64,000 bases of DNA, taken from IMG/VR virus record IMGVR_UViG_3300027908_000001, positions 23,167 to 87,166 of that record; one strand, 5' to 3'. The position numbers and the translations under genes are program-made. The stretch is from a virus (lineage: Duplodnaviria; Heunggongvirae; Uroviricota; Caudoviricetes). Position 1 is the first letter of the stretch. Every line of letters begins with the position of its first letter. The notes beneath the pieces were generated by a model, which was given only the letters and a program-made list of their open reading frames with translations, had not been told where the DNA came from and did no database searches. This document shows, one piece after another, positions 23,042 to 42,729 of this stretch.

Positions 23042-23938
23042 TCATGCCGTGATTTCTTCGTAAGCGCCAACCAGAACCTTGCTGTCCCAGAACATCCGTC
23101 CGCCGTTGGCAATGAGTTCGGGCTTCCAGTTACCCAAAATCGGTGAAATATGGGTTTCTCGGAATCGCTTCATATCTTCCGCCGCCTGCCTGCGCCCCTC
23201 TCGCGTCAATCCGCCTTCTTTCCTGTGCATGAGCGCATACTGCGTCGGCACTCCGTAATGGTCGAATCGGAAGCGTGGGTCGGTGACGAAAAAATTCGAT
23301 ATGCATCCCATGAGCCGCATCCCGAGGCGGGCGTCCTGAGCCCGGTAATCACTGAGTTCATGGTTGTGGCCACCTAACTCGCGTAACATTTTTCTCGGGG
23401 CCGCCCATATCGCCCCGTAAGCCAGCAACGGTGTCTTGGGCATCCGATACACTCCGGGCTCTGCAGGAAAATAGTCCAAGCGAGGGTCACGATGGAGCTT
23501 CACGCCGGTCTGTTCGTCGTAGAAATCGATTTGGCCCCACAACACTCTCTGCGGTGTTTCGGTAATGCGCTGCTCAATCACCAACTCGACCATGCCGGTG
23601 TCAGGAACTCCGTCTGCGTCCAGATGAATCAGGATGCTGCCAATCGCTTCCTTGAAAAGCACGTTCTCGGCCCAGCCCGGACCTCCGCCTTCGAGTGTCC
23701 TTGGTGTCAATCGACGGAACACGCTCGCTGAGAACGGCCAGTCATGCCCGAGCAATTCTTTCTTCAAAACCTCGACTGTGTCGTCCGTTGATGCATCGTC
23801 GACTACTAGGACTTCAAGCGGAGGGATGGTCTGGCAGGCGAGGGCCTCAAGTAGCTTGCCATCTCGCCAGTGTTCGGCGTCGTTAAAACTTGGTATGATT
23901 ACACTGACTGTCACGCCTTCCCCCGCATCTTGCCCCAT
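23042..23938 (-). CDS. glycosyltransferase family 2
   Basis: VSVIIPSFNDAE...LEALACQTIPPLEVLVVDDASTDDT: classic GT2 N-terminal signature. Confidence 0.6.
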   Translation of the reverse strand: MGQDAGEGVTVSVIIPSFNDAEHWRDGKLLEALACQTIPPLEVLVVDDASTDDTVEVLKKELLGHDWPFSASVFRRLTPRTLEGGGPGWAENVLFKEAIGSILIHLDADGVPDTGMVELVIEQRITETPQRVLWGQIDFYDEQTGVKLHRDPRLDYFPAEPGVYRMPKTPLLAYGAIWAAPRKMLRELGGHNHELSDYRAQDARLGMRLMGCISNFFVTDPRFRFDHYGVPTQYALMHRKEGGLTREGRRQAAEDMKRFRETHISPILGNWKPELIANGGRMFWDSKVLVGAYEEITA

Positions 23939-24137
23939 GGCGGGTCATCCACGACTCGTTGCAGTGAATCCATGTAATGGCCAGCCGCTAGGCCATCTAT
24001 CTCACCCCCGCACTTGGTACAAGCAATGTTGGCCCCGCCGTCCGCTGCCTCGAAGTTGTGCGGGAACTTGCAGTCACCGAGTCGGCGCTTGTTGGCATCG
24101 TCGTGTACGGCCTTGGCGGATTCACCGGCGAGCGCGC

Positions 24138-24512
24138 TCATGGTTCCACCGGCTTCGGCACCGGCCGATAATCTGCCATCTTGCGAAAGGCGATTTCTTT
24201 AGCCACGGCCACAGCCTCGCGCATCTGCTGAAACCAGCAGGGGTTAATATTGCCGAAGTTGGCGTTCCCATTGGTAAGCAGTTCTTTACTGGCTGGTTCC
24301 TGCCATGGAGGCATGTCAATCACAGCGGCCTGCAATTTTCCGGCGTCTCTCTTTGCACGCTCGATAGCGCGCTGGTATTCGTCCAGCTTATCGACAGCGG
24401 CGGCACCGAGCAGCATCCAGTCCTCGCTGTTGCCGAGTATGCCGTGACGGCGCAAGCCTTCGCGCACCTGTTCCTTGGTCACTTCAAAGCTCATTCTTCC
24501 ACCTCTCGCCAC
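24138..24512 (-). CDS. hypothetical protein (124 aa)
   Basis: Track ORF. Confidence 0.3.
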   Translation of the reverse strand: MARGGRMSFEVTKEQVREGLRRHGILGNSEDWMLLGAAAVDKLDEYQRAIERAKRDAGKLQAAVIDMPPWQEPASKELLTNGNANFGNINPCWFQQMREAVAVAKEIAFRKMADYRPVPKPVEP

Positions 24513-24832
24513 TTACAGTCGGCACCTTCGTCCGGGGAATGGTCATCAAAAATGTTTGGGTCTTTGGGTCGCCCAGCTTTCAGCCAAGCATTCATGTAGT
24601 CCCTGTGCCACTCGGCTTCCTGAATATCGCCATACATTTTTCCTTTGTGCCTGATTTTATCCACAATCAACCATCCCTTGCGAAGCTCCAGCGTGTACTT
24701 GCCGTCGTCACACTCAATAATCACGTAGTGCGAATTGTGGTTTCTGGTCGTTACAAGTGTAATTTGCAATGCCAACAAAATCCAAACGAACGTCATTAAA
24801 ATCCTGTGTGTCATGTTATGCCTCTCCGTCAA
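24491..24832 (-). CDS. N-terminally membrane-anchored hypothetical protein (113 aa)
   Basis: Track ORF; ILMTFVWILLALQITLVTT. Confidence 0.3.
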   Translation of the reverse strand: MTERHNMTHRILMTFVWILLALQITLVTTRNHNSHYVIIECDDGKYTLELRKGWLIVDKIRHKGKMYGDIQEAEWHRDYMNAWLKAGRPKDPNIFDDHSPDEGADCKWREVEE

Positions 24833-25139
24833 TCAGCTTCTTGGCCTTCTCTTGAATGTCCACAATCACCTCGCCCCGGTTCGGCTGGCAGTGGCCGATG
24901 GACCGGAGTTGGTTGGCGATGTTGTCCAGCCACACTCCGATTCGCCTGCGCTCGGTATTGACCGCCGCCTTCACTTCGTCTGGTATGATGTCCGGCGGAG
25001 CTACCTTTATACCGCCGCCCTTATTGCAGAAACACCGGCAGCGCGTTCCACCGTATACACCCGTCGGCGCTGGATGTCCTTTTTCGCAGCGGTCATGGTC
25101 GCCAAGCTCGCATCGCATGCATGTGTAGAGATAGACCAT
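24816..25139 (-). CDS. Cys-rich hypothetical protein (~107 aa; trimmed from 24816..25175)
   Basis: CMRCELGDHDRCEKGH...CRCFC; ATG overlaps TAA of upstream small gene (TAATG). Confidence 0.3.
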   Translation of the reverse strand: MVYLYTCMRCELGDHDRCEKGHPAPTGVYGGTRCRCFCNKGGGIKVAPPDIIPDEVKAAVNTERRRIGVWLDNIANQLRSIGHCQPNRGEVIVDIQEKAKKLIDGEA

Positions 25140-26025: not shown

Positions 26026-26026
26026 G

Positions 26027-26278
26027 TTATATTTCAAGGAGAAACGCAAATGGACGCACGGTTTTATAAGCATCGAGACGTTTTATTAAACCACGCACAC
26101 GTGCTGGTAATTTAAGTAAAGTGCGGCTAGTGTCTTTACCGTCCAAACGGATACTATCATTAAGGACCACTACTTTTTTATTGGTATGACGGGAAACGGC
26201 CTTGGCAACTGCACAATGCCATGGGTTTCCGATAATGCCAGTGCGAATGTCTCGCTGTGTTACTCTTATGGTTTTCAT
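26027..26278 (-). CDS. hypothetical protein (83 aa)
   Basis: Track ORF. Confidence 0.25.
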   Translation of the reverse strand: MKTIRVTQRDIRTGIIGNPWHCAVAKAVSRHTNKKVVVLNDSIRLDGKDTSRTLLKLPARVRGLIKRLDAYKTVRPFAFLLEI

Positions 26279-27234
26279 GGCATCAAATCTTCCGCTCGTA
26301 ATGGTTCGCGTTCGCCGATTTCCTTGGTATGCTGTATCAGCGCGGTAAACCTTCTCTCAAAATTCGCTCGTTCTGTCAAGAACGATTCTCTCGCGATTCT
26401 GCCAAGCTTGCCGCAATCGTCCTCGGACAGCCGCCAGCAGTTGTCCGCCGCGCCCATGACGGATACCGGGGATATGCTGTGTGTCGTCGCAAGCCCTTGC
26501 TTGGACTGATGTTCGGATGGAATGCGCAGACCGTTGGGACAGGCGGCGATTTCGTCGAATGGCGGATACTTGCCGCTTACGACCACCGCCCCGCAGCCTA
26601 TGGATTCCCAGATGGATTGGCCGTAGCCCTCGTATGCCGACGCCATGATGTGGAACTGAAACTCGTTCTTCATCCGCGCCAGCGTCGGCTTGTCGACAGA
26701 TTTTATGTAAGTTATGTTTGGCTCGTTGCCGGTGTAGTGCTCAGCGAGGATGGTCAGTGGATACGGCAGCGAGAACCTTCTCCATGCTTCGATGACTGCG
26801 AGGGAATTCTTAGCCTGAGACTGTCCTGCATTATGTAGGAAGGCGCGTTTCTTTTTGACGGCGGGGTCATAGAAATCCTGCGCGGTGAAGCCGGTGTAAT
26901 AGACCTGATGGGCTATGGGCTTAAAAATGCGTTCCGCATCGCGCGTCTTGGCCAGTACCATATCAATTTTGGATAACAGGTAGTTATTCGACGCGGAATG
27001 CCATTCTACATTTGGTAGGTATAGCCTTCTTTTGGCCCAGCGAATCATGGCCGGATTCAATACTTCCAAAAAAATAAGCATGTCCACTTCATGGCACGCA
27101 CTGCAATTGTCAAATTCCCATCCAAACACCTCGTGCCCCATTGGCTCAAGCAGGGCCTTGAGAATTAAAAAGTCAGCGAGCAGACCTTTGCCGCCGCGGA
27201 GGTTCGAGCTAATAGCGATTCTCACGCGCCCCAC
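26275..27234 (-). CDS. glycosyltransferase, GT-B fold (GT4-like)
   Basis: C-terminal EGYGQSIWESIGCGAVVVSG matches GT1/GT4 E(x7)E motif region. Confidence 0.55.
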   Translation of the reverse strand: MGRVRIAISSNLRGGKGLLADFLILKALLEPMGHEVFGWEFDNCSACHEVDMLIFLEVLNPAMIRWAKRRLYLPNVEWHSASNNYLLSKIDMVLAKTRDAERIFKPIAHQVYYTGFTAQDFYDPAVKKKRAFLHNAGQSQAKNSLAVIEAWRRFSLPYPLTILAEHYTGNEPNITYIKSVDKPTLARMKNEFQFHIMASAYEGYGQSIWESIGCGAVVVSGKYPPFDEIAACPNGLRIPSEHQSKQGLATTHSISPVSVMGAADNCWRLSEDDCGKLGRIARESFLTERANFERRFTALIQHTKEIGEREPLRAEDLMP

Positions 27235-27971
27235 TCCGGCAGCACAGGATTCTCCAACTCAAAGTAGCCATACCGCCGCGCCATTATCGCAGCCTGCTCC
27301 TTGATGTGGCTGGCCGGTATGTCGCTCCACTTGATGTCCTCTTTGCGTGCGCGGTGATTGGCTTGCGTGCCGAGCCGCGCGAACAGCGGGCGTACCTGCA
27401 TCTCGGTCCGTTCTTCGCCTAATGCCCACCGCAACATTTCCACCACTTCGATTGGACGAATATACCGTACACGCCAGCGAGCGTAGTTCGGGCTGTCGCC
27501 AACCGCTATTTCAATCATCCGATTCCAGAGCCACCAGTAGGCCAGCGCCCTCTCCACCTCCGTCGGCTGCTTGAATGCTTCCGGACAATGTTTCATGGCG
27601 AACGGCGCGAACGGTTCATAGGGTCGAAAAGGCGTCTTGAAGAACTCGATGCCGGTTGCCGACCGGATGTTGTGAAGCGGATGTCGGACCTGATGCAGGA
27701 TGGCGACATTGCGCGAGATGGTCTTCAAGAACGGTGCAGCGCACCACGAAGATTCAGCGCGCATGCTCGGTAGCGTCTCCCAGAAGGCCATGCCAACCGG
27801 CTTGTTTAAGAAAGGATGGAACACCTGCTCATGACCACAATGGATAGCCAGACCGTTGAGCATCTCAGATATGAACCGAGTGCCCGACCGCTGACAGCCG
27901 GTAATCAGCAACCGTCGCATTATTAGTCTCGCAGTGTGGCGGAAAGATACCCGGTGCACTTCTCGCGCCAT
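27222..27971 (-). CDS. sulfotransferase-family protein
   Basis: RLLITGCQRSGTRFISEML resembles 5'-PSB P-loop of sulfotransferases (hhhhGxxRSGTT). Confidence 0.4.
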   Translation of the reverse strand: MAREVHRVSFRHTARLIMRRLLITGCQRSGTRFISEMLNGLAIHCGHEQVFHPFLNKPVGMAFWETLPSMRAESSWCAAPFLKTISRNVAILHQVRHPLHNIRSATGIEFFKTPFRPYEPFAPFAMKHCPEAFKQPTEVERALAYWWLWNRMIEIAVGDSPNYARWRVRYIRPIEVVEMLRWALGEERTEMQVRPLFARLGTQANHRARKEDIKWSDIPASHIKEQAAIMARRYGYFELENPVLPEWGA

Positions 27972-28630
27972 GGCGACGCGTCCACGTTATGGGTCCGCGC
28001 CAGCCGTTCGGCAAACGCGGTGAACTCATCCTTGGTCACCGGATGATATTCCATGGCGATACGTTTGATGCGGCACAATATCTCGGGTGTCGTGTCGAAG
28101 ATTAGGTACTCACTCCATTCACAGTCGCACTTGAAAAAGTCGCACACGAAAATCTGGTTATCCTCAAACACGTCAGCGAGCGTCACGGTCTGGCAATCAG
28201 CGTAATCACCCTGCAATCCTTCATGACCGGTGGCCAACAATCGGCTGCTGCCGAAATTCCCCAGTATCTTGCCCATGCCGCGCTCGTTGCTGACGGCCTT
28301 GTTCCAGACCGTGATGTTGCCGTCCACTTCAAAGCCGTTGTCACGGATGTTGCGCAAGAACAACACCATGTTCTCCGGCTCCGGTTCGTAGGCAATCACC
28401 CGCGCGCTCGGGCACAGCTTGGCCGCGTACATGCTAAAGGCTCCGATATTTCCACCCACGTCAAGGATAACGCCGCCGTCCGATACCATGTCGGGCGAAA
28501 ACTTGTAAACCTGTTGGTCGAACACGTCGTCAATCACCCAGCGGTCGGACGTGTTCTCGCGAATGTGAAAGGTGAATCCCGAGCCCGGATGTTTGAAGGT
28601 TATGGTGTTCATAAAATCAAATCTGCACAA
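27923..28630 (-). CDS. FkbM-family methyltransferase
   Basis: GGVILDVGGNIGAFSMYAAKLCPSARVIAYEPEPENMVLFLRNI: FkbM signature. Confidence 0.5.
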   Translation of the reverse strand: MCRFDFMNTITFKHPGSGFTFHIRENTSDRWVIDDVFDQQVYKFSPDMVSDGGVILDVGGNIGAFSMYAAKLCPSARVIAYEPEPENMVLFLRNIRDNGFEVDGNITVWNKAVSNERGMGKILGNFGSSRLLATGHEGLQGDYADCQTVTLADVFEDNQIFVCDFFKCDCEWSEYLIFDTTPEILCRIKRIAMEYHPVTKDEFTAFAERLARTHNVDASPWREKCTGYLSATLRD

Positions 28631-28777: not shown

Positions 28778-29326
28778 TCAAATTTCCTTGGTCGCGATGA
28801 CGTATCGCAGGTCGTGCATGAAGCTGAACCGCCGTCTCGCGCCGAATCGTTCGTTGAGTTTATCGACAGTAACTTCTTTCCATTCCTCGGTCACGTTGGG
28901 CGCGCCTCCGAACGCTTGGATGTCGTCCACTACGACAAGCTCGCTATACGGCCTCGACAGGATGAAATCAAGTTCCTTGAACAGCGGCAGGCCATCTTTC
29001 GGGCAATCGATGGGGTCAATGGGGTCATGCCACCAGTGAGCGTCCAGATAGAAGAAAGTCGGTAATGCTGGCGCAATCTTTGGGAGCAAGTCAGCCGAGT
29101 TGCCCTGATGCAGCTCAATGCACGGGTCAGGCGATGTTTCTCGGAATCTATCAATGTAAGCCTGACTGATTTCGATACTGTGAACCCGCTGGAACTCGTA
29201 CGAGGCCGCCGCGCGCCTGCAGGTGCCGCCCTGAAACAAGCCCGTCTCGATGAAGGTCTGGAACGGCTGCTCGAATCCGCAGAGGCGACGGAAGAAGTAG
29301 AATTCAGGGATTTGAATGCCGGGCAT
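28778..29326 (-). CDS. class I SAM-dependent methyltransferase (TylF/CmcI-like), ~182 aa (trimmed from 28778..29491)
   Basis: FIETGLFQGGTCRRAAASYEFQRVHSIEIS: glycine-rich SAM motif I; start trimmed to MPGIQIPEF to abut upstream gene. Confidence 0.4.
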   Translation of the reverse strand: MPGIQIPEFYFFRRLCGFEQPFQTFIETGLFQGGTCRRAAASYEFQRVHSIEISQAYIDRFRETSPDPCIELHQGNSADLLPKIAPALPTFFYLDAHWWHDPIDPIDCPKDGLPLFKELDFILSRPYSELVVVDDIQAFGGAPNVTEEWKEVTVDKLNERFGARRRFSFMHDLRYVIATKEI

Positions 29327-29327: not shown

Positions 29328-30053
29328 TCACACCTTTCGATACAGCACGTGGTTTTCGTGGTCGATACCGAGCAGTTCGCCGCGGTATCCGCAGTGTTCC
29401 ATGAAGTGATTGAAGTTGGTGGAAGTGGCGTGGTAATCGCGGATGAGTAGTTCGGGATGCACGGAAATCCAAAGGAGCATTGGCTTGCCAAGATTCAGCA
29501 AATTTTTAGCTCCCTGCATGGCCAACAGTTCCGCGCCTTCGATGTCCATGGTAACGGCGTCGGGGAATATGCCGGTACGAGCGCACCAATCATCCAGTGT
29601 CGTCTGCGGTGTCTGGTCGGCGTGCGCGTGGATGTAGCGGCAATCGTATGGCGTGAAGATTTCACCGACAGAGCATCCCGGCCAGCCATCGGCCTTCATC
29701 TCGTTATCGAAGTTCAGGTTCGGCGGGTTCAGGTCGGTCTTGTCGCTCACCAACCCGGCGAAACAGGCTTTCGGCTTGGCGAGCCCGTTCGCTTCCCATG
29801 TCTGGCGGATGTTCGGCCAAACCAACGGCAGACCTTCAAATAGGCACATGTTCTCCGCGCCGACCAGCTTGGCGAATATGATGGATATATCCGCCTGTTC
29901 GCAACCCACATCAAGAAGCACCATGCCGGGCTTGAGATGTCGTTCCATCGACTCGAACCGCTGGACCTCCCACATCTGGCGCTCATCGAACGTGTCGGCC
30001 CGGTGGTCGGGCAATATAATTGTCCACTTCTTATTGATGGTCGTCGCTCTCAT
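29328..30053 (-). CDS. FkbM-family methyltransferase (second copy)
   Basis: GMVLLDVGCEQADISIIFAK...AVTMDIEGAELLAMQGA. Confidence 0.45.
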   Translation of the reverse strand: MRATTINKKWTIILPDHRADTFDERQMWEVQRFESMERHLKPGMVLLDVGCEQADISIIFAKLVGAENMCLFEGLPLVWPNIRQTWEANGLAKPKACFAGLVSDKTDLNPPNLNFDNEMKADGWPGCSVGEIFTPYDCRYIHAHADQTPQTTLDDWCARTGIFPDAVTMDIEGAELLAMQGAKNLLNLGKPMLLWISVHPELLIRDYHATSTNFNHFMEHCGYRGELLGIDHENHVLYRKV

Positions 30054-30853
30054 AATCGTATCCAGTGCGGCTCGTAAATGTCTGCGTTATGATTCCCTCG
30101 ACCCGGTGGCACCCAGCAGGCAGGGGCCACGACCGTCTTATTGCAATCGGGGTCGCCGAGCATCGCACCCCACGCTGAGAACGTCGAATTGGCTATGATT
30201 ATCGCGTCCATCCGGGACATCACTTGTATCGCCATGTAATCTCGGTCGTTCACGATGTCCGGTCGGCGCATGAACCCGAGGTTCTTGTTGCACCAGTCGA
30301 GGTCGTCACTGAACACCACGAACTCGGCATCTGGGAACTTCGCTGCGGCAGCTTCGTAGTAGCTCAGTGGCAGGTCCCAAAAGTAATCGGTCACGTAATC
30401 CGCCCGGCGCACGTGGACGGCGACCAGTTGTTTGCCGATATGCCGCCGTCGCAATTCTTCCACGCGCACGGCCACATCGGCCCGATACGTCTTGGTGAAC
30501 ACGTCGATGATTTCCCGCCGGTAATCGTTGAAGTACCGGCTGGAAGTGTAGAACCCGTAGAGCATCGTGTCGGTCGTGAACGCAGGCAGCGCCTCGAACT
30601 TTTTGTAGTTCTCCTCATGCCGCTTGAACGGTGCCGGGTCGGTAAACGTGCCGTAGGCTTTGAGGACCGGCTTGATGAAATGCCCGAACGCGGTGATGTC
30701 CTTGTAGTATTGGCATTCCTCTTGTGGCCAGCACGGCTCAAGTTTCTGCCGCCATGCCGTCGCCAGCACGCACGCTGTCTCGAACATCAGGTTACCGAGT
30801 CGCCCTTGGAAGTTGCAGGTGATTCGGCTCATGGTTTTCTCACGACCATCCAC
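30050..30853 (-). CDS. GT11-family alpha-1,2-fucosyltransferase
   Basis: HVRRADY (HxRRxD motif I of alpha-1,2-FucTs) at 30395..30415; GRLGNLMFE N-terminal motif typical of GT11. Confidence 0.6.
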   Translation of the reverse strand: MDGREKTMSRITCNFQGRLGNLMFETACVLATAWRQKLEPCWPQEECQYYKDITAFGHFIKPVLKAYGTFTDPAPFKRHEENYKKFEALPAFTTDTMLYGFYTSSRYFNDYRREIIDVFTKTYRADVAVRVEELRRRHIGKQLVAVHVRRADYVTDYFWDLPLSYYEAAAAKFPDAEFVVFSDDLDWCNKNLGFMRRPDIVNDRDYMAIQVMSRMDAIIIANSTFSAWGAMLGDPDCNKTVVAPACWVPPGRGNHNADIYEPHWIRL

Positions 30854-34604: not shown

Positions 34605-35261
34605 TCAAGACTTGGCTCGCTTTCTTCGTTGATATTCTCGTGCCCTGATGCGGACACACTGGACACAATTTCTGCCTTTGCCGTCTGGACGAATGTACGA
34701 ATTCCCCGGCGTCAGTGCGTGGCCTTGCGAACAATGCGTGTGCCGAAGTTCGGGATGAGGCCCAAACATCAATCCGCGTTCTACATTTATGGTGTGAGTT
34801 ACCGGCTCGTGGTGCCAAGGGTTGACACATGGAGGAAACCTGCAAAGATGGTCGAGCACAAGCTCATCGGGAATCTTGCCAATCAGCGCTTCATAAAACA
34901 CACGATGGGCATACAACTTTTTGCCGCCCTTCCTGATTTCTCCATAGCCCTTGCCGTTCTCTGAACCAGTCCAACTCCAACAACTATCGGGAAGCTCTAC
35001 AACTCTACCCATGTACCTGAACAGTGGATGCGACTCGTCCGCTCGCAAGCTGTCCAGAGAGATTTTGGCGGGCGGCCTTGTAGCGACAACCTCTTTGATT
35101 TTGGGATTAAAAAATCCCACCGTGTCGCCAAGCACCATCGGGCGATTCCTTGCGGAAATCACAACAGGTGCTTCGACAACATCGGCATTATGAATCTTCC
35201 AGTTAATCGTTCGGTTCCCCACCGCAGCGGCTTGTTTACCGGAGATTCTTCGAGGTGTCAA
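34605..35261 (-). CDS. HNH (HNH_3-type) homing-endonuclease-like protein
   Basis: GKGYGEIRKGGKKLYAHRVFYEALIGKIPDELVLDHLCRFPPCVNPWHHEPVTHTINVER. Confidence 0.55.
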   Translation of the reverse strand: MTPRRISGKQAAAVGNRTINWKIHNADVVEAPVVISARNRPMVLGDTVGFFNPKIKEVVATRPPAKISLDSLRADESHPLFRYMGRVVELPDSCWSWTGSENGKGYGEIRKGGKKLYAHRVFYEALIGKIPDELVLDHLCRFPPCVNPWHHEPVTHTINVERGLMFGPHPELRHTHCSQGHALTPGNSYIRPDGKGRNCVQCVRIRAREYQRRKRAKS

Positions 35262-35542
35262 GACTTGCCAACAGCCTCAATCCAGAACCCATCTTCCTTG
35301 TGACCGAACCGGTCCGTGAGCGTACCAGCCCGGCACCCCTTCACAATGAACGGCTGACCGGAAATGTAAATCGTGGCGTTGACGGCCATCCCAGCTTTCA
35401 CAAAGAACGTTGCCGTGAAATCGTTCTTGCCTTTCCGGTTCAACTTGGCCGCTACATCCAGACAGGAGGCCGCGATTAAGACCTTGTCCGCGGTTTGGAC
35501 GGTTGGCGCGTTGCTTCCGAGGATGATGCCGGATTCGCTCAT
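35258..35542 (-). CDS. hypothetical protein (94 aa)
   Basis: Track ORF; ATGA overlaps both neighbours. Confidence 0.3.
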   Translation of the reverse strand: MSESGIILGSNAPTVQTADKVLIAASCLDVAAKLNRKGKNDFTATFFVKAGMAVNATIYISGQPFIVKGCRAGTLTDRFGHKEDGFWIEAVGKS

Positions 35543-36618
35543 GTCAGCACCGGTAAAGTTCCGAACCAGTCCGCGTCCCAGTTACACCGCCATATCATTC
35601 GTCGCATCATCTCGGGAGAGTCTCCTTCTTGTTGATGGATAAATTTGTCTGGCGAGTGTTTCAATGGGGAAGGACTCAAACCCGTACCGAGTTTTCCTCG
35701 GTCACCATCTGCCAGACTCGAAATGTCATCTTCCAGCGCGTGAACCAGCGCTCGCTTCTGTCCAATCCACCACGCCATGGCCCTGTTCGTCTCCTGCTGC
35801 CGTTTCTCGGGCATGCCGCGAAAGATGTTGCCGAGCGTATTGAATTCTTCCCAACTGGTAACAACTGGAAACGGCGGCGGACCGCCGAGTAAATCAGCCC
35901 AGTAATCGTAGTTCGCTTCCTCGGACGGACAGCGGCGCTCGACTATAGGCAAACATCCGGCTTCCAGCGATTCCCATATTCGGAAGCAGTCGGCAGTATG
36001 CGTGCCGGACGGATTCGGTGCCAGATACGCGCACGTCATCATCTGCAAATATTCCTCAACCTTGTAACCCCGGCTGTAACCGGCTGTCCGGCTCAACAGT
36101 CCGCCGTCAGTGCGCCGTCCGAGCATCTCCACGCATGCCCGGCGCTGCGGGTGTTGCATTTGACCGATGAACGCCCATGGGAACCGGCGCGAGGCGTCCG
36201 GACAGGCTGGTGCGAGCTTGGCGAGTATCTCACGCGTGCCGCCGGGCCAGCCGATGCAGAATTTTCGGTCAACCCCGGCATGCTTATCGCCGTGGGGCAT
36301 CTGCAGCCAGATTTTGCGGTTCGGCCCGAGGAGCTTGCGCCACGGGAACCGGCCTTCCTCGTCCGCCGCCACGACGACCAAGGCCCATGATAGTTTATCC
36401 AGCGCGCGCGCTATCTCGTCAGCGTAAGCGCGCTGGACCCCACCCGAGACAATCACGACGGCCCCGTGCCCATCCATCTCGGGGTCGTTGTGGTCAAGGA
36501 TATGCCTGAAAGTTAGTGTTGTCGGCCAAAGCTGGCCCGAGAACGCGTGCTGCAACATCCCGTGGCAGCGGTCGCCGCGGTTGCCGAAACACCACACCAC
36601 TGGAATTGTGTCACTCAT
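35539..36618 (-). CDS. GT47/exostosin-like glycosyltransferase (paralogue B)
   Basis: CAYLAPNPSGTHTADCFRIWESLEAGCLPIV; N-terminal VVWCFGN / GAVVIVSGG blocks parallel paralogue A. Confidence 0.45.
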   Translation of the reverse strand: MSDTIPVVWCFGNRGDRCHGMLQHAFSGQLWPTTLTFRHILDHNDPEMDGHGAVVIVSGGVQRAYADEIARALDKLSWALVVVAADEEGRFPWRKLLGPNRKIWLQMPHGDKHAGVDRKFCIGWPGGTREILAKLAPACPDASRRFPWAFIGQMQHPQRRACVEMLGRRTDGGLLSRTAGYSRGYKVEEYLQMMTCAYLAPNPSGTHTADCFRIWESLEAGCLPIVERRCPSEEANYDYWADLLGGPPPFPVVTSWEEFNTLGNIFRGMPEKRQQETNRAMAWWIGQKRALVHALEDDISSLADGDRGKLGTGLSPSPLKHSPDKFIHQQEGDSPEMMRRMIWRCNWDADWFGTLPVLT

Positions 36619-36835
36619 GCTGGAATTTGAAAGTCTTTCTCACGGCTGGTTCGGCGTCCTCAAATCGTTTGTAATCCTCGTTCCACAACTGCACGTTGCC
36701 GCTCCGTCTCCACTGTCGCGCCTGCAGGATGTACCCGGCTCGCCTGACCGTACCAAGTAGAAACATAGGGTGTCGCACCGGCTGGAAGAAGTCCGGCGGC
36801 AACGGCGGCGTTTCCTTGGTTTTGACCCAACTCAT
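36611..36835 (-). CDS. hypothetical protein (74 aa) starting MSWVK
   Basis: Track ORF; ATGA overlap with upstream gene. Confidence 0.3.
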   Translation of the reverse strand: MSWVKTKETPPLPPDFFQPVRHPMFLLGTVRRAGYILQARQWRRSGNVQLWNEDYKRFEDAEPAVRKTFKFQHE

Positions 36836-37344
36836 GAGCAGTTGATATTCAATACAATCGAGGAATGCTCACGTTCAATCCCATGCCATGAGTGAGCGCT
36901 CTTGGTGAACAAGACTATTCCCCCTTGCCGATGCCCGAATGGCACATAGGGTGCAAGATGGTTTTCTATCATCCTATCCATCACCACGACGGGGAATCCA
37001 TAGGATTTAAGTGTGGTCGGTTCTGGCAGCCATACATCGCTCCCCATAGTGCAGCGCTGTGCCAGCTCTGTTCTGTAAGCCTTTTCCACATCAGCCGATG
37101 CATACAAAACGAATTCGGCTGGCTGGCGGCGTTTCATTTGCGGGACCATCACTATTGCTTCAAGGAAGCAGTTGTAATGAAATGGTCGGTGATTCCAATC
37201 AAGGATATACTGGCTTCTTTGGAGTCCGGAATTGTGCTGCTCCTTTGCGAGTGGAAATCCGCCAACACCAAAGAAGGATAAAGCACCAATTGCCGATGAT
37301 TTTAGGAAGTCGCGTCTATTCATGCGTGATTTTACCCAACTCAT
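36832..37344 (-). CDS. Tat-signal (twin-arginine) exported protein (170 aa)
   Basis: MSWVKSRMNRRDFLKSSAIGALSFFGVGGFPLA: RRDFLK twin-arginine motif, hydrophobic h-region, AxA-like site. Confidence 0.4.
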   Translation of the reverse strand: MSWVKSRMNRRDFLKSSAIGALSFFGVGGFPLAKEQHNSGLQRSQYILDWNHRPFHYNCFLEAIVMVPQMKRRQPAEFVLYASADVEKAYRTELAQRCTMGSDVWLPEPTTLKSYGFPVVVMDRMIENHLAPYVPFGHRQGGIVLFTKSAHSWHGIEREHSSIVLNINCS

Positions 37345-37800: not shown

Positions 37801-37957
37801 TTTCGGTCCGGATGATTGGTATTTATGTCAGCGCAGAAGGACTTCTTTACGGTCGCCAAAGTGGCCTCATCTAGCAGTCCCTCCGTCTCAAATACGGAAT
37901 TCCCTTTTGACACGCTGCCGTTTTCACAGAGAGCCTCAATTGCCGCCATGTACTTCT

Positions 37958-39642: not shown

Positions 39643-40266
39643 TTAATCCAGTTTCCTCACGCTACCGGTCACGTCACTGTAACCGGATGCCTGTTTCGCC
39701 AGCGGTTCCGTGGGGCAATAAACTTTGTACTCGCCGCACATCGATGAGAACGCGTGGTCGACGCTGATGCACATGCTCCCGAGCCGCTTGAGCCACTCGG
39801 ACAGCATTTTTTCGCGGACAACGTAACAGTGAAGCCCCCAGAAATGCCGGGCGACAGCGACGTGAGGTGTCAGCGGTGTTGGGGCAAGACCGGACGGATA
39901 ATAGCCGAGCCACAACGCGTCCCAATTATCGGGCACCTCATTCATGAACCGTTTGAACCGCTCGAAGTAGTCCGGCTCGAACTTCACGTCATCTTCCAGA
40001 ATCAGGGTAAGCTCGCCCCTTTCGTGAGCCAGCCGTGCTTGCAGCGCCACGCGACCGTGAGACACCAGCGCCGCATACTCGGTCGGTTTGCCACGGAAAT
40101 ATTTCGGCATCTTCACATCATCTGGCGTCACGGCGGTGAAGAACCTCGGCTGCTTGAACGCCCAGTTACAGGCTTTCAGATTCTTGCGCAATGCCCGCCG
40201 CCGGTCAGCCCGTTTCTTGAGGCTGATGCAAACTACGTCGCCGAATATCTCGTTAGCGTTTGACAT
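39643..40266 (-). CDS. glycosyltransferase family 25 (LPS/LOS beta-1,4-galactosyltransferase-like)
   Basis: VVCISLKKRADRRRALRKNL...FFTAV: GT25 signature. Confidence 0.5.
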   Translation of the reverse strand: MSNANEIFGDVVCISLKKRADRRRALRKNLKACNWAFKQPRFFTAVTPDDVKMPKYFRGKPTEYAALVSHGRVALQARLAHERGELTLILEDDVKFEPDYFERFKRFMNEVPDNWDALWLGYYPSGLAPTPLTPHVAVARHFWGLHCYVVREKMLSEWLKRLGSMCISVDHAFSSMCGEYKVYCPTEPLAKQASGYSDVTGSVRKLD

Positions 40267-40966
40267 GTCGTTGATACTTTCCGAGCCAGATGCCGCACCG
40301 ATATTCCCACGGCATCAGGCTCATGTGAATCGTCAAGTCGCCCGGCTGCCAGCTACGCTTGAGGGGCGGTCCCTTGACCTCTTCCCAGACCGACCCGATT
40401 TCATTCTCCGTACACGCATGCACCCCCTTGTAGTTCAAGTTGTGCAAAATATTGTTGAGTTGCCGTTGCTCGCGTTTCTCCTCGATGCCTTCCCGCTCGG
40501 GATGGTCGCCGCCTTCGATGAGTTGCAAAATGCGCTCCAACGTTTCCATGGAGCGCCAGTCGTGACGGAACACCAGCAACCCGGCGCAGATGTATTTCTT
40601 GTGAGTCTTGCCTAGCTCACGCATACCGGCCAACCAGTGTTTATCGTCTACGAGGTCGCCGATGTCCCGCGTGAAATCCGTGAACGCAATATCAGCGTCC
40701 GCCCAGACCACCGTGTCGAATCCGCGGCGCAACAGTTCGCGGATGTACCAAACCTTGGAGTAGACCGGAGAAATTTCGGGCCAGTAGGCGCGCGGCTCGT
40801 AGATGAACGTGTAACCCCATCGACTGGCATAATCCGCCTTGTTCGCGCGCAGGGCGTAACAGTGATACGCGATGTCGGGCGTGTCCATCGTCAACAGGGC
40901 GCGGCGCTCGCGGCGATGTTTCAGCCTAAGAATGCCCGGCGAATGTTCTTTGTCTGTTTGCTTCAT
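40253..40966 (-). CDS. GT-A fold nucleotide-sugar glycosyltransferase (GT34/GT8-like)
   Basis: FDTVVWADADIAFTD DxD-type motif. Confidence 0.35.
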   Translation of the reverse strand: MKQTDKEHSPGILRLKHRRERRALLTMDTPDIAYHCYALRANKADYASRWGYTFIYEPRAYWPEISPVYSKVWYIRELLRRGFDTVVWADADIAFTDFTRDIGDLVDDKHWLAGMRELGKTHKKYICAGLLVFRHDWRSMETLERILQLIEGGDHPEREGIEEKREQRQLNNILHNLNYKGVHACTENEIGSVWEEVKGPPLKRSWQPGDLTIHMSLMPWEYRCGIWLGKYQRHVKR

Positions 40967-41391
40967 GCCTGTTGCGGCTCAATTAACCGATAGTGGTAAG
41001 AATTCGACTCACGGAATTCAATCCATGACCGCTCTACCCATTCGAGCCAAACCACCTGCCGACCGGGGCGCACCTCTGCTCCAATCGGCACAGGCTTCCA
41101 AGCGAACCATTTCTCCCATCGATGCGGGTCGGCCTGCGTTCTCTCAATCCATCTCATGCCGAATGCCTATTCATCGCCAGAGGATGACATATCTCCAAGT
41201 GTCCCCTGACCTTTTGCAGCGTCCATTGTTCGATGCGGTCCGGGTATTTCAGGAAAATGTTGGCCAAGGAATTTGGCCTCGACCGAATCCGCCAGCGCAA
41301 CACCCCGTCCGGCACGACCACCGGCAGGCTGGGAACGTCCGACCATATCGGCGACGGGACAGCGGGCCATTTGCCTATCGATACCGCCATA

Positions 41392-41730
41392 TCACTTCAA
41401 CGCATCCACGACCGCCTGAAACAGTTTATCCTTGACCTTCTGCGCCTCGGGTAGTTCGTCATACGGAACAAGACATGGGTGCTGCTTCAAGGCCGCGTCT
41501 TTGACCGGGCCATGTGTCCAGCCGTCGTTCACCTTCGCCAGCATCCACGCGACGTGTTGCGCGTGCGGGCCGACTTGGGGATTGTTGAGGCGGAATTGCA
41601 CGCCTTGAATGGCGCTCTCACGCTGCCACTGTTCGGCATTGCCCCAGTCCTTCTGGCTGTTGTCGCCCACGGTTTCACAATACGCTTTGTTCGCTTGATG
41701 AGTTATCTTGGCTATATCTTCAACGTTCAT
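41392..41730 (-). CDS. RyR-domain protein
   Basis: IAKITHQANKAYCE...WMLAKVNDGWTHGPVKDAALKQHPCLVPYDELPEAQKVKDKLFQAVVDAL matches RyR repeat consensus (iHe.W...GW.yG...d...K.hP.LvPy.eL.e..K..dr). Confidence 0.5.
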   Translation of the reverse strand: MNVEDIAKITHQANKAYCETVGDNSQKDWGNAEQWQRESAIQGVQFRLNNPQVGPHAQHVAWMLAKVNDGWTHGPVKDAALKQHPCLVPYDELPEAQKVKDKLFQAVVDALK

Positions 41731-41748
41731 GGTTCTCCTTGATTCAGG

Positions 41749-42729
41749 TTATTCTTTCAGTCTCTCGGCAATGGCGGGTTCGTAGCTGGCGACGGTCCGC
41801 AGAAGCTCGGTCATGCGGTTATCATACGTCGATACCGCCTTGGTGCGCTCATGACCGGCAATCTGGATTCGGCGGCGGTCAGATTCGTGGGCCGGGTCGA
41901 GGTAGTGGTCAATCAATTCTTTCAATCGGGCGTATTCTCCGAACCGGTAGTAGCGAATGTGCTCGCCATCGGTCCAGATGTCCTCCATGCCCTCGACGAA
42001 AGGATGAATCAGGAATCCTCCTCGCCCGGTCGTTTCTGGCACACGGTCGCTCCAATACCGGACCTGCTTGAATCCCACATTGCAACTGTCTCCGACCATG
42101 ACGCGGCAAGAAGCGTAGAGTTGATTCAGATTGTGTCCGCGCCATGAGTCTCCATTGGCCCCGAACAATCTGAACCTCGTCCCGTAGGTTTTTTCGAGCC
42201 ACGCTATGAGTTCTCCTCTTGGATGCTCGCGGTGATATCCCCGACTGCCGCAGAAAGCCACATCGGTTATGAGGTCTACCCTCGGTTCTGCCATGTAGCA
42301 TTCGCGCTTGAGAACGCCCGGCCTGAACCAAAAATGATTGATGCCCTTGGCCTTGAATATCTCATCATGGCCGCCATCCGCCGTCCAGCAGTACCTAGCA
42401 TGCCAAAAGGGGTCGAACCCCAATGTCTTTTCTCGCTCCAGACCTATGTAAGCGTCAAGATGCACAGTCACCGTCGGAATCCGAATCCGCGCCAGCATCT
42501 GGTAGCCGTCACAGCGCAGGAATCCCATGGTGCGGGTCCATAGGAACAGGTCGGCGTCACGGCAGGCTTCGAGGATTTGCGGTAGTTCGGCGGTTTGTTC
42601 GTGAACGCGGTTGACTCTGTGCCCAAGCGATTCGAGCGTCTCGGCAATGTGCGACTCAGTCGTGAACCGCTTCTCGGCCGGTAAATCCGGCTGATGATTC
42701 CCCAGATAGACTATCGATAATTTCCCCAC
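41749..42729 (-). CDS. CgeB-like (DUF3880 + Glyco_trans_1_2-type) putative glycosyltransferase
   Basis: Overall resemblance to CgeB-like proteins by eye; weak. Confidence 0.3.
   Translation of the reverse strand: MGKLSIVYLGNHQPDLPAEKRFTTESHIAETLESLGHRVNRVHEQTAELPQILEACRDADLFLWTRTMGFLRCDGYQMLARIRIPTVTVHLDAYIGLEREKTLGFDPFWHARYCWTADGGHDEIFKAKGINHFWFRPGVLKRECYMAEPRVDLITDVAFCGSRGYHREHPRGELIAWLEKTYGTRFRLFGANGDSWRGHNLNQLYASCRVMVGDSCNVGFKQVRYWSDRVPETTGRGGFLIHPFVEGMEDIWTDGEHIRYYRFGEYARLKELIDHYLDPAHESDRRRIQIAGHERTKAVSTYDNRMTELLRTVASYEPAIAERLKE

Follow-up and report, generated by a model that had tools for sequence, protein, structure and literature searches.

Genes of the region and their arrangement

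The DNA analyzed here comes from an uncultivated soil phage with a genome of ~197 kb, in which a 20-kb run of glycan genes lies inside the head-assembly operon. The window, i.e., the whole stretch of 64,000 nucleotides that was analyzed, holds 38 ORFs between positions 23042 and 42729, every one on the minus strand. Neighboring ORFs overlap by 1–47 nt at 23 of the 37 junctions, mostly with ATGA-type overlaps of 4 nt, and only four gaps exceed 60 nt. The ~20-kb co-oriented, translationally coupled island between portal and MuF modules that had been predicted is thus present, and public gene calls for the source contig are concordant with its ORF layout. It is part of one co-oriented gene run that extends from the portal to the MuF head protein, and promoter-like or terminator-like sites are not in excess in the island region. 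The annotated features are as follows (GT, glycosyltransferase).

57712–59247 (−), terminase large subunit TerL: phrog_2 2.6e-29; tblastn 27–31% identity to annotated TerL genes
54787–56340 (−), portal protein, upstream boundary, head module: Pfam Phage_portal 8e-26, phrog_12 2.4e-35
41749–42729 (−), CgeB-like GT-B enzyme, first gene of the island and core member of the cassette described below: Pfam Glyco_trans_1_2 2.4e-16, phrog_28745 1.5e-48
41392–41730 (−), RyR-domain protein of 112 aa, passenger: precomputed Pfam PF02026 on the source contig
40253–40966 (−), putative GT-A fold GT, GT34/GT8-like, weak: Pfam Glyco_transf_34 below cutoff (E 0.0034); DAD motif at residues 90–92
39643–40266 (−), GT25-family GT: Pfam 24.9 bits (cutoff 24), phrog_2835 glucosyltransferase 4.7e-8; EDD motif
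36832–37344 (−), Tat signal peptide protein, NRRDFLK ahead of a hydrophobic stretch: Pfam TAT_signal 17.6 bits (cutoff 22.7), TIGR01409 15.6 bits (cutoff 16.7)
35539–36618 (−), GT47/GT114-like GT-B enzyme, paralog b: Pfam RXYLT1_C 25 bits (cutoff 27); blastp 1.6e-40 to paralog a
34605–35138 (−), HNH endonuclease between the two GT47-like paralogs: Pfam HNH_3 7.7e-6
33556–33948 (−), Acb2/Tad1-hairpin-like protein of 130 aa, possible anti-defence sponge, passenger: Pfam PF24729 20.1 bits (cutoff 27)
32600–33559 (−), GT47/GT114-like GT-B enzyme, paralog a, marker of the conserved cassette: Pfam RXYLT1_C 30.3 bits (cutoff 27)
31446–32537 (−), SPFH/Band-7 membrane protein with N-terminal hydrophobic segments (hydropathy scan): Pfam Band_7 4.3e-26, phrog_200 2.5e-65
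30829–31437 (−), class-I SAM methyltransferase (Methyltransf_25): Pfam 1.6e-18
30050–30832 (−), GT11 (alpha-1,2-fucosyltransferase family), short form of 260 aa: Pfam 9.2e-18, phrog_2644 4e-35
29328–30053 (−), FkbM-type methyltransferase, the cassette methyltransferase: Pfam 21.9 bits (cutoff 22.7), phrog_8156 1e-10
28778–29326 (−), fourth methyltransferase, class-I SAM, COMT/CmcI-like: family profile against PDB, Erm 8e-6, COMT 2.5e-5
27923–28612 (−), FkbM-family methyltransferase: Pfam Methyltransf_21 1.2e-10
27222–27920 (−), PAPS-sulfotransferase-fold protein: Pfam Sulfotransfer_3 7.6e-4, N-terminal P-loop part only
26275–27225 (−), GT4-like (Glycos_transf_1) GT-B enzyme: Pfam 1.2e-3, below cutoff; phrog_2170 6e-7
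23042–23938 (−), GT2, last gene of the island: Pfam 2.4e-14; DAD motif
8378–13180 (−), polyvalent head protein of 1600 aa, downstream boundary: ART-PolyVal, MuF, intein-like insert and 2'-5' RNA-ligase-like domain

Nearly all family calls of the original prediction survived profile or fold tests. At least eight glycosyltransferases had been claimed; seven are supported (GT2, GT4-like, GT11, GT25, CgeB-like and two GT47/GT114-like), and the GT-A enzyme stays weak, its best PDB sequence match being a xyloglucan xylosyltransferase at a non-significant E of 0.36. A hydropathy scan predicted no transmembrane segment in any of the island GTs. The CgeB-like enzyme has phmmer homologs in 66 viral loci, with 57% identity in L007 and L009 and 33–40% to a GT of nine Streptomyces phages. 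In L007 and L009, homologs of the GT4-like enzyme that are 44–46% identical match Glycos_transf_1 (PF00534), and paralog b of the GT47/GT114-like enzymes has phmmer homologs in 77 viral loci.

Paralog a gave an AF2 model with a pLDDT of 87.4. Foldseek against the PDB placed EXT1/EXT2 at rank 1 and mostly A075L of the chlorovirus PBCV-1 at ranks 2–12, and A075L was also the top match in a profile search of the PDB (E 0.02). The best viral structural relative is thus a capsid-glycan xylosyltransferase: A075L acts in the cytosol on the glycan of the PBCV-1 capsid protein (PMC11571054).

All four methyltransferases that had been named (two FkbM-type, two class-I SAM) are supported by profile or homolog evidence. 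The enzyme at 27923–28612 matches the FkbM half of a GT47-like::FkbM fusion in locus L013 (9.8e-22). For the cassette methyltransferase at 29328–30053, phmmer found homologs in 50 viral loci, the best one in L019 (6.8e-58), which itself has an FkbM domain at 1.3e-14. The class-I enzyme at 30829–31437 has homologs in 23 viral loci and is fused to an FkbM domain in L019. Taken alone, the fourth enzyme (28778–29326) matches in Pfam only Methyltransf_35, below cutoff (E 0.0074); it has 2237 homologs at E up to 0.001, and among 40 of these, Methyltransf_24 occurs in 7 and Methyltransf_25 in 5.

The sulfotransferase-like P-loop protein likewise held up. Its family has invariant TGCxRSGT and HQVRHPxxxxRS motifs, and a Foldseek search of the PDB with its AF2 model (pLDDT 80.5) returned PAP/PAPS-dependent sulfotransferase folds in 19 of the 20 top matches, led by TPST1, CurM-ST and tick TPST. 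A 53% identical paralog adjoins tail genes elsewhere in the same genome, among 1000-aa ORFs and ~7 kb upstream of a tailspike gene. The SPFH, Tat-signal and RyR-domain proteins were also confirmed by Band_7, by the NRRDFLK motif, a textbook consensus though under curated cutoffs, and by PF02026. Absent from the original prediction were the HNH endonuclease, the Acb2/Tad1-hairpin-like protein, whose PF24729 match is present unmarked in the precomputed Pfam listing, and about 18 small ORFs of unknown function.

The island proteins recur on five to six contigs of 50–200 kb. Contigs from three assembly sources were inspected, and the three assemblers arrived at the same island arrangement in a circularly permuted genome of ~197.3 kb, with different break points in the contigs of 197,351 and 197,423 bp. 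The GC content of the island (0.554) resembles that of its flanks (0.567 and 0.548), and distant relatives preserve the order CgeB-like, GT47-like, GT4-like, polyvalent protein. A chimeric host origin, which the original prediction had named as a possible refutation, is hence unlikely. The island is a genuine phage-borne set of genes for glycan assembly and decoration.

A conserved cassette in the packaging and head operons of tailed phages

The core genes are a phage-typical cassette that many unrelated tailed phages carry in their packaging/head operon. This core comprises the CgeB-like GT, FkbM and class-I methyltransferases, a GT47/GT114-like GT, a GT4-like GT and sometimes GT11. With paralog a as marker, at least 151 relatives were found in IMG/VR, compared with only 24 clusters in a word-indexed search of 5.8 billion proteins. 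Among the 74 loci analyzed, a CgeB-like GT was present in 65, a GT1-type GT in 61 and the cassette methyltransferase in 51. TerL or portal lay within 10 kb of the GT47-like gene in 50 of these loci (median 3.2 kb), in all 50 on the same strand. The cassette loci belong to several TerL/portal families, and their GC contents range from 31 to 72%.

Within these genomes, the cassette occupies the TerL–portal interval or the interval between portal/major capsid protein (MCP) and tail genes; one 70-kb contig has the order MuF, CgeB-like, GT47-like, FkbM, GT11, MCP, tail tube. GT11 homologs with 46% identity lie within the cassette of two other phage contigs, and in both contexts inspected short forms of 255–269 aa were found. 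The MuF region of the 1600-aa polyvalent protein resembles the C-terminal half of portal–MuF fusion proteins in cassette-bearing phages (1.7e-11), and the HNH family of the island is also inserted in cassettes of other loci, L144 included. Full-length copies of the GT47-like gene are confined to phage-like contexts: the closest database homologs had one in 5 of 5 cases inspected, and those in bacterial genomes, e.g., Nocardia and Mycolicibacterium, lie in prophage-like settings. The word island, understood as an inserted region, is therefore misleading for the core, which habitually resides inside phage head/packaging modules. We propose that a compact cassette of CgeB-like, FkbM/class-I, GT47/GT114-like and GT4-like genes, with or without GT-A and GT11, underlies the 20-kb region, in which it has been expanded and interrupted.

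The additional genes might also have been gathered in an accessory-gene hotspot, where only the conserved core shares one target and the extras (GT2, GT25, GT-A, sulfotransferase, SPFH, Tat, RyR, Acb2-like) serve unrelated ends such as anti-defence, membrane remodelling or a small-molecule glycoside. In agreement with this, GT2, GT25, GT-A and the sulfotransferase-like protein are without homologs in the cassette loci, and roughly half of the 38 ORFs, HNH, Acb2/Tad1-like, coiled-coil and Cys-rich proteins among them, lack any signature related to glycans. Moreover, the cassette of L013 is coupled with a radical-SAM/SPASM enzyme, and among the closest folds to the sulfotransferase-like protein are tyrosylprotein sulfotransferases and the ST domain of CurM, which have non-sugar acceptors. 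However, coupling is tight and orientation single across the region, and eight GTs with four methyltransferases per 20 kb represent an enrichment far above a random accessory assortment. We hence consider such a mixed function improbable.

Possible targets of the glycan

Two uses had been proposed, virion glycosylation and seroconversion of the host surface. The cassette recurs beside the packaging and head genes in at least 151 other phage contigs, which favors a sugar coat on the virion, and we tentatively prefer this as the best reading of the island, at a likelihood just short of even. The structural resemblance of the GT47-like enzyme to A075L, the paralog of the sulfotransferase-like gene near tail genes, the soluble GTs and the phage-like contexts of the homologs were also counted in its favor. 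The island would then be a late-expressed phage machine that builds an oligosaccharide in the host cytoplasm and decorates it on virion proteins, i.e., capsid and/or tail; gene position and analogy suggest a virion protein as acceptor. The island is without sugar-activation genes, and the soluble GT-A and GT-B enzymes would draw nucleotide sugars from host pools. The glycan would be extended and probably contain fucose through GT11, and the GT47/GT114-like enzymes may add a further sugar, in their structural relative A075L xylose. FkbM and class-I methyltransferases would O-methylate the sugars, and sulfate could be added by the PAPS-type sulfotransferase. All sugar identities are predicted from enzyme families, and the coat might serve in shielding, stability or adsorption.

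Alternatively, the soluble GTs, methyltransferases and sulfotransferase could modify lipid-linked LPS, LOS, O-unit, CPS or EPS intermediates of the host at the inner membrane face. Host export would then bring a changed glycan to the cell surface, where it would prevent superinfection or keep progeny from adsorbing again to infected cells and debris. GT2, GT11 and GT25 are families typical of O-antigen and LOS synthesis, GT2 weakly matches phrog_841 'GtrB-like', and GT11 is 32% identical to the GT11 of cyanophage glycan clusters. The island also contains envelope-directed SPFH, Tat-signal and TM proteins, and peripheral GTs can do without dedicated export genes. The three GT families and the envelope-directed proteins count against virion glycosylation, as do published accounts that prefer host-surface remodelling for multi-GT clusters of jumbo phages and cyanophages (PMC7824862, section 3.4.10; PMC12801897). 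On the other hand, the island yielded no gene for a nucleotide-sugar epimerase/dehydratase, a nucleotidyltransferase or a sugar kinase, in which it differs from cyanophage clusters. Wzx, Wzy, ABC transporter, polyprenyl-phosphate GT, polytopic membrane GT and flippase are absent from it as well. In many small phages the core lies, co-oriented, within the late operons for head and packaging proteins, where superinfection exclusion would be poorly timed and placed, and the full-length GT47-like genes of bacteria do not lie in polysaccharide loci. Envelope remodelling thus appears unlikely, albeit still the strongest competitor. Classical gtrABC seroconversion is unsupported, since the island has neither a polytopic membrane GT nor a flippase.

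DNA glycan hypermodification is a well-documented use of phage GT clusters that the original prediction had not considered. Here, the oligosaccharide would be assembled by the GTs on a phage base that is hydroxymethylated or activated in another way, so that restriction and CRISPR are evaded. Precedents are the mono- to trisaccharides that phage GT clusters place on 5hmC and, in jumbo phage YerA41, a thymidine adduct of ~1 kDa that resembles an oligosaccharide. Among the cassette loci, L011 has a C5 DNA methylase, ParB, TET/JBP and a TET-associated GT (TAGT) directly adjoining, L062 a C5-methylase beside the cassette, and L007 a dCMP deaminase ~8 kb away; ParB-like genes adjoin 9 of the 74 loci. 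In small phages, the position immediately upstream of TerL often holds DNA-modification genes, which speaks against virion glycosylation, and Pyle et al. described DNA-glycosylating clusters, with secondary GTs and epimerases, near terminase/structural genes. Inspection moreover covered only about half of the 197-kb genome. However, jackhmmer searches of about 84 viral loci found TET, and likewise a true TAGT domain, only in L011. In the phage itself, Pfam annotations of window positions 2743–64000 and ~36 kb more of the genome contain no TET/JBP, TAGT, thymidylate-synthase-like hydroxymethylase or DNA methylase. For the GT47-like fold, EXT1/2 and A075L are far better matches than T4 alpha- and beta-GT, as the T4 DNA glucosyltransferases appear only at ranks 31 and 48 of the Foldseek list, and several loci have the cassette between capsid and tail genes. 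To our knowledge, four sugar-type methyltransferases, a sulfotransferase and a fucosyltransferase have not been reported to act on DNA adducts, which we also count against a DNA target. Taken together, we assign this alternative a low probability.

Comparison with Corndog and cyanophages

Virion glycosylation finds its closest positional parallel in the mycobacteriophage Corndog, which has a methyltransferase and three GTs (gp35–38) between portal gp34 and MCP gp41, a position that the island cassette matches. [quoted passage not shown] As points against this reading of the island, the window holds no homolog of any Corndog GT, and the core CgeB-like, GT47-like and GT1-type enzymes have no detectable homology to gp35–37. 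Seven cassette loci carry an additional GT that is homologous to Corndog gp38 (hhalign probability 100%, E 1e-35 to 5e-47), and the HNH endonuclease of the island is a homolog of Corndog gp33 (1e-10).

Cyanophages offer a parallel in enzyme content. In INPHARED, 102 records contain GT11 homologs; with a single exception they belong to cyanophages or to uncultured phages of marine origin, and the literature also describes a cyanomyovirus that encodes 13 GTs (PMC12801897). The combination of a sulfotransferase with GT11 had been called rare in bacterial viruses; this is wrong, as cyanophages possess both, and ACG-2014f carries GT11, a methyltransferase and a galactose-3-O-sulfotransferase together in one cluster.

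Integrity and setting of the island

Nearly all genes of the window lie on the minus strand, and the glycan-enzyme island (23042-42729) sits among modules for packaging and head assembly:

57712-59247, minus strand, terminase large subunit (TerL), a clear call
54787-56340, minus strand, portal, a clear call
8378-13180, minus strand, 1600-aa polyvalent protein with ART-PolyVal and MuF domains, an intein-like insert and a 2'-5' RNA-ligase-like C-terminus
5001-8381, minus strand, second giant ART-PolyVal protein, following the 1600-aa polyvalent protein

The intein-like insert comprises residues 540-797 (Intein_splicing, 26 bits, below cutoff). An ORF that runs off the window start (1-2223, minus strand) and measures 773 aa on the source contig encodes a third consecutive giant "polyvalent" head protein, with repeated HPRDxxGEF motifs. 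Between the island and MuF we also found genes for a 1078-aa protein with several zinc-ribbon motifs (14451-17687), a stand-alone response-regulator receiver-domain protein (18395-18874) and a T4_Y16D-family protein (21483-21749), all on the minus strand.

The original prediction had named a chimeric assembly of host origin as one finding that would overturn it. Exact protein matches assign the window to a phage genome from a soil metagenome, and the same genes were present in contigs of 197,351 bp (ENA ERZ28653432 scaffold_8), 197,423 bp (ERZ923594 k127_1618362, run ERR1700722) and 197,437 bp (ERZ27255970), and in an 82.9-kb Logan contig. Break points of the first two contigs differ, and scaffold_8 starts inside the MuF gene and then runs on into the genes at the low-coordinate end of the window. 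From contig ends and lengths we therefore estimate a genome of ~197.3 kb, circularly permuted or terminally redundant in assembly. GC content of the island (0.554) is close to that of its flanks (0.567 and 0.548). A chimeric or host-derived island is rejected on the agreement of assemblies from three sources with differing contig breaks, on uniform GC content and on synteny in relatives; the gene run is phage-borne.

The phage is remote from cultured ones. Its TerL shares at most 31% identity with that of any cultured phage, and the island as megablast query had no match in INPHARED. Pattern scans of IMG/VR with a single protein, TerL or GT11, retrieved no relatives, and alignment was required to find them. 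A tRNA scan found none and hence gave no clue to the host; the stretches of genome read showed no integrase. The ~36 kb read beyond the window encode a DNA polymerase III beta clamp, a Clp_N protein, giant ORFs and a tailspike. These ~36 kb contain neither base-modification genes nor the nucleotide-sugar genes that the original prediction had proposed to seek elsewhere in the phage.

Enzymes encoded in the island

All 38 ORFs of the island lie on the minus strand; 23 of the 37 junctions are overlaps, and only four gaps exceed 60 nt. A promoter and terminator scan returned fewer sites than shuffled sequence and was uninformative. Pfam supports GT2, GT11, the CgeB-like Glyco_trans_1_2 protein, one RXYLT1_C/GT47-like protein, FkbM, a class-I methyltransferase and SPFH, with GT25 scoring just above the cutoff. 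Below the cutoff were the second GT47-like protein, the GT4-like protein, the second FkbM, the GT-A, the sulfotransferase and the Tat signal, and several of these gained support in other comparisons. The two GT47-like proteins (32600-33559 and 35539-36618) are paralogs (1.6e-40), and the GT4-like protein matches phrog_2170, while its 44-46% identical relatives match Glycos_transf_1. ORF 29328-30053 is homologous (6.8e-58) to a methyltransferase whose copy in L019, one of the loci read for comparison, has a clear FkbM domain fused to Methyltransf_25. The ORF at 28778-29326 (182 aa) falls in a large family; in the PDB, the profile of this family matches class-I methyltransferases of Erm and COMT type. 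Support for the GT-A (40253-40966) remained weak on re-testing, with nothing significant among PDB sequences by phmmer, and NCBIfam added no calls for the ten weakest ORFs.

Profile and fold comparisons thus leave the predicted inventory essentially intact: seven solid glycosyltransferases (GTs) and one weak one from at least six families, four methyltransferases and one protein with a sulfotransferase fold. Nearly all family calls stood; missing from the gene list were an HNH endonuclease, a protein with an Acb2/Tad1-like hairpin and numerous small ORFs. Pfam scans, including precomputed matches for 13-64 kb of the window, revealed no NAD-dependent epimerase/dehydratase, nucleotidyltransferase or sugar-kinase genes. 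The GTs have no predicted transmembrane segments, and the island encodes no lipid-carrier GT, flippase, polymerase or exporter, nor any multi-TM protein besides SPFH and a 59-aa peptide.

The Acb2/Tad1 hairpin-like domain lies inside the island in a 130-aa protein (33556-33948, minus strand) and could be a cyclic-nucleotide sponge acting against CBASS or Thoeris; it fell below the cutoff in our own Pfam scan and is unmarked among the precomputed matches. HNH endonuclease genes occur three times in the window (34605-35138, 45074-45838 and 59987-60910, all minus strand). The one inside the island, 34605-35138, is homologous to gp33 of mycobacteriophage Corndog, which sits between TerL and portal. 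Members of its family are also inserted within the GT cassette of seven comparison loci (L018, L027, L047, L048, L062, L082 and L144), a pattern suggestive of a mobile element with this cassette as its target.

In the product of 27222-27920, the motifs TGCxRSGT and HQVRHPxxxxRS are invariant across seven homologs; they correspond to the 5'-PSB and 3'-PB motifs of sulfotransferases. PAP/PAPS-dependent sulfotransferase folds made up 19 of the 20 top PDB matches of its AF2 model (pLDDT 80.5; TM 0.41-0.59), led by tyrosylprotein sulfotransferase-1, the CurM ST domain and a tick tyrosylprotein sulfotransferase; by phmmer, nothing significant appeared among PDB sequences. With its phosphosulfate loop, RxPxxxxxS motif and P-loop-like alpha/beta fold, the protein has the features of the PAPS-dependent sulfotransferase superfamily, and the corresponding activity is predicted. 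A 53% identical paralog is encoded in another part of the same genome (L143, 10001-10699; scaffold_8 ~96.4 kb), next to ORFs of 1000-1177 aa and a Malectin-like protein; a pectate-lyase-type tailspike gene follows ~7 kb downstream. Given the fold matches to tyrosylprotein sulfotransferases, direct sulfation of tail proteins is conceivable.

The GT47-like protein passes the RXYLT1_C Pfam cutoff. Its AF2 model (pLDDT 87.4) best matched human EXT1/2 in Foldseek (1.3e-5), followed by chlorovirus PBCV-1 A075L (5e-5). T4 AGT and BGT appeared at ranks 31 and 48, their E values (4e-3 to 1e-2) being typical of generic GT-B proteins. A075L came first in a profile search of PDB sequences with the GT47-like family, with a marginal E of 0.02. 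The sole close match in BFVD was a protein of an uncultured Caudovirales.

A recurrent cassette in head and packaging operons

The GT47-like enzyme served as marker for related loci. A word-indexed search of 5.8 billion proteins returned only 24 clusters, and an alignment-based scan identified relatives, 151 from IMG/VR and 44 from GTDB genomes. Full-length GTDB matches look prophage-like (Nocardia asiatica NBRC 100129, NZ_BAFS01000460.1; Mycolicibacterium moriokaense DSM 44221, QQBJ01000015.1, ~39-60 kb; Nocardia sp.); those covering the C-terminal half only (Rhodospirillaceae and others) are generic GT47-like domains. The marker has no PHROG, and two GT47-like proteins used as tblastn queries had no match in INPHARED, so the family is absent from cultured phages at that sensitivity. 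A CgeB-like GT with a methyltransferase occurs in nine Streptomyces phages, at the end of the structural/lysis operon; Yara, Dryad and Wentworth are Streptomyces phages with both genes.

All ORFs of these loci, 80 of them taken from IMG/VR, were clustered and gene-order maps drawn. A co-oriented gene set emerged, consisting of a CgeB-like GT, one or more methyltransferases, the GT47-like GT, a GT1-type GT and often a GT-A. Among the 74 IMG/VR loci with a GT47-like ORF, a CgeB-like GT was present in 65, a GT1-type GT in 61 and a methyltransferase in 51. A recognizable TerL or portal lay within 10 kb in 50 of the 74 (median 3.2 kb), in every case on the same strand. Three layouts were found: the cassette followed by an optional ParB, TerL, portal-MuF and protease-MCP; the cassette followed by TerL, a second CgeB-like GT, portal and fibre; and TerL, portal and MCP followed by the cassette and tail genes. 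They recur across unrelated TerL/portal families, and locus GC content ranges from 31 to 72%. In many of the small phages with a cassette, portal and MuF form one fusion of ~700 aa; in the window genome they are 41.6 kb apart, and the polyvalent protein resembles such fusions in its MuF region (1.7e-11 to their MuF half).

Every core family of the cassette is present in the window. By phmmer, homologs of 32600 and 35539 were found in 77 viral loci, of 41749 in 66, of 29328 and 30829 in 50 and 23, and of 26275 in eight. Elsewhere the genes form a compact arrangement of ~4-8 kb adjoining TerL or portal; in the window they occupy 16.5 kb, with other genes in between, at a distance of 12 kb from the portal. 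The island is hence an expanded, interrupted variant of a cassette that normally lies within the head/packaging operon. To judge by its homologs (46% identity) within the cassette of two other contigs, the window GT11 belongs with it as well. One, of 70 kb, has the order TerL, portal, MuF, CgeB-like, GT47-like, BubE, FkbM, GT11, MCP, tail terminator, tail tube. In the other, L144, the GT11 homolog adjoins an NDP-sugar dehydratase, a CgeB-like GT, the HNH family of the island, a GT47-like GT and FkbM.

Two distant phage contigs from other samples, L007 and L009, keep the order of the CgeB-like, GT47-like, GT2 and GT4-like genes and ART-PolyVal polyvalent proteins. Three of their GTs are 44-57% identical to those of the window, and only these and parts of the polyvalent proteins are detectable among window genes (tblastn, E 1e-4). 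L009 further carries (3127-7727) a TnpB (OrfB_IS605/Cas12f-like) gene directly upstream of the CgeB-like GT and, directly downstream of it within the cassette, a 772-aa protein with a faint match to N6_N4 DNA methylases. A third phage locus, L013 (2850-6813), encodes a 536-aa GT47-like::FkbM fusion, which connects this GT in function with the methylation of sugars; next come genes for a class-I methyltransferase and for a radical-SAM/SPASM enzyme, the latter hinting at a peptide substrate. A complete cassette with TerL and portal was also found on a 48-kb contig in an Asgard bin (L096; JABCTC010000026.1, Candidatus Heimdallarchaeota MAG), probably a mis-binned phage contig.

Possible targets and relation to known systems

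Virion proteins are a plausible though tentatively held target of the island. We favor them because the Corndog genes gp35-38 occupy the same kind of position between portal and major capsid protein (MCP), because gp38 is clearly homologous to an accessory GT of seven cassette loci, and because the GT47-like model resembles the capsid-glycan enzyme A075L, with the T4 DNA glucosyltransferases far down the same ranking. Lack of predicted membrane segments in the GTs and of any machinery for lipid-linked synthesis or export argues for the same target. Beyond enzyme families, position and solubility, the mechanism is something we infer.

A serious alternative, overlooked in the original prediction, is that the island hypermodifies DNA with glycans. 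Phage GT clusters place mono- to trisaccharides on 5hmC (Pyle et al.), and the YerA41 adduct reaches ~1 kDa. Like the island, DNA sugar-hypermodification clusters (TET/5mYOX or ThyS-like plus GT, Pyle et al., Iyer et al. 2013; T4 alpha/beta-GT) use envelope-derived phage GTs; they sometimes lie near terminase or structural genes and include secondary GTs and epimerases. A cassette locus on a ~38-kb phage contig, L011 (14067-16602; GCA_040961205.1 / Logan SRR25508611), bears on this reading. Its cassette includes two NDP-sugar epimerase/dehydratases and is followed directly by ParB_N, TET/JBP, TAGT and BubE, then by TerL and portal-MuF, with a C5 DNA methylase upstream; L011 may represent either complex DNA glycosylation or two systems side by side. 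TET, however, occurs in only one of ~84 cassette loci, L011 itself. At sequence level a TAGT domain was likewise confirmed there only: an earlier count of four loci, L042 among them, was discarded after L062 and L065 had been re-scanned, as their short proteins align with nothing but the non-TAGT portion of the protein from L011, and L062 has a C5-methylase only. Neither a base-activating enzyme nor a DNA-type GT was detected in the ~100 kb read of the ~197.3-kb genome. Pfam annotations of window 2743-64000 and ~36 kb more lack TET/5mYOX with C5-methylase and ThyS-like hydroxymethylase, and the island has no Pfam TAGT match.

Multi-GT clusters of jumbo phages and cyanophages are customarily interpreted as remodelling the glycans of the host envelope, and this interpretation would fit the GT11, GT25 and GT2 families as well as the SPFH, Tat and TM passenger genes. 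These clusters, like the island, gather many GT families in large genomes, such as the 15-gene cluster of P-SSM2 and the 13 GTs of S-SCSM2R (PMC7824862, PMC12801897). The window GT11 is 32% identical to a cyanophage homolog, and in cyanophage ACG-2014f a GT11 stands together with a methyltransferase and a sulfotransferase; with this and the published multi-GT clusters of big phages, the combination of sulfotransferase and GT11 loses the rarity first ascribed to it. Besides GT11, none of the island proteins matches the ACG-2014f cluster. Cyanophage clusters, however, contain nucleotide-sugar epimerases/dehydratases and aminotransferases amid auxiliary metabolic genes (hli, psbA, ferredoxin); the island has no sugar-activation genes and is sited in the head operon. 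The gtrABC/Oac O-antigen seroconversion modules of temperate phages are phage-encoded glycan modification as well, and GT2 weakly matches a "GtrB-like" PHROG (9e-4). The island nevertheless contains neither a GtrA-type flippase nor a polytopic GtrC-type transferase and, unlike these modules, lies in a late structural operon.

Returning to virion proteins as target, we consider it possible, though less likely than not, that a virion-glycosylation cassette typical of phages and so far uncharacterized is widespread in head/packaging operons (at least 151 IMG/VR contigs), with the island as its most elaborate example to date. Virion glycosylation would then be common among tailed phages, and this soil phage would display a fucosylated, multiply O-methylated, sulfated glycan that is chemically convergent with chlorovirus capsid glycans. 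To our knowledge, phage-encoded virion glycosylation has been demonstrated only in a few mycobacteriophages, and the original mycobacteriophage study reportedly found little evidence for it across the wider phage population. Recurrence of the cassette in head operons of at least 151 uncultivated contigs of very different GC content suggests a wider distribution. The cassette also occurs in prophage-like regions of Nocardia and Mycolicibacterium strains that can be cultured, so whether glycosylated virions are common can be tested directly. Glycan coats influence how antibodies recognize particles, how stable the particles are and possibly how they adsorb, and hence bear on phage therapy and phage ecology. 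A DNA target would instead imply an unusually complex hypermodification, and a host-envelope target a new class of superinfection barrier. Glyco-engineering could moreover draw on the island for predicted soluble GTs of compact size, sugar methyltransferases and a small sulfotransferase.

Two systems in which virion proteins are glycosylated by virus-encoded enzymes come closest. In PBCV-1, cytosolic GTs (A075L/GT114, A064R, A111/114R) glycosylate the major capsid protein. Its glycans carry O-methylated sugars. A075L is a GT114 xylosyltransferase that builds the core of the capsid-protein N-glycan on a fucose-containing acceptor, a trisaccharide in the crystal structure. Sequence similarity to the island is marginal, however, and chloroviruses have eukaryotic hosts and N-linked glycans. 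Corndog (cluster O), according to a passage in PMC11600133 that cites Freeman 2023, modifies its capsid and tail-tube proteins with a methyltransferase (MT) and three GTs, gp35-38, encoded between portal gp34 and MCP gp41. Both phages encode a methyltransferase and several tandem soluble GTs, co-oriented within the head-morphogenesis operon. The Corndog order is TerL, HNH, portal, MT, GT, GT, GT, MCP; that of the window is TerL, portal, island, MuF. Unlike the window, Corndog lacks the CgeB-like, GT47/GT114-like and GT4-like families, and the island, with its eight GTs, four methyltransferases and sulfotransferase, is ~7 times longer than the Corndog cassette and split by unrelated genes. Island proteins had no match to gp35-38 at E<1. 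Corndog gp38 is homologous to the accessory GT of seven cassette loci, including a Nocardia prophage (1e-35 to 5e-47; hhalign 100%), and gp37 gave weaker matches only. By hhalign, only this accessory family, GTA19, which is not in the window, equals gp38, and direct homology of the core cassette to gp35-37 is rejected on negative results. A jackhmmer association of gp37 and gp38 with clusters 2 and 0 was dismissed as profile drift in favor of non-iterated phmmer. Large multi-family GT clusters in big phages and virion glycosylation cassettes in mycobacteriophages are thus known already. New are the core set of CgeB-like, GT47/GT114-like, GT4-like and FkbM proteins, with a marker enzyme unmatched among cultured phages (INPHARED, PHROG), and the breadth and regularity with which this set occurs inside head operons.
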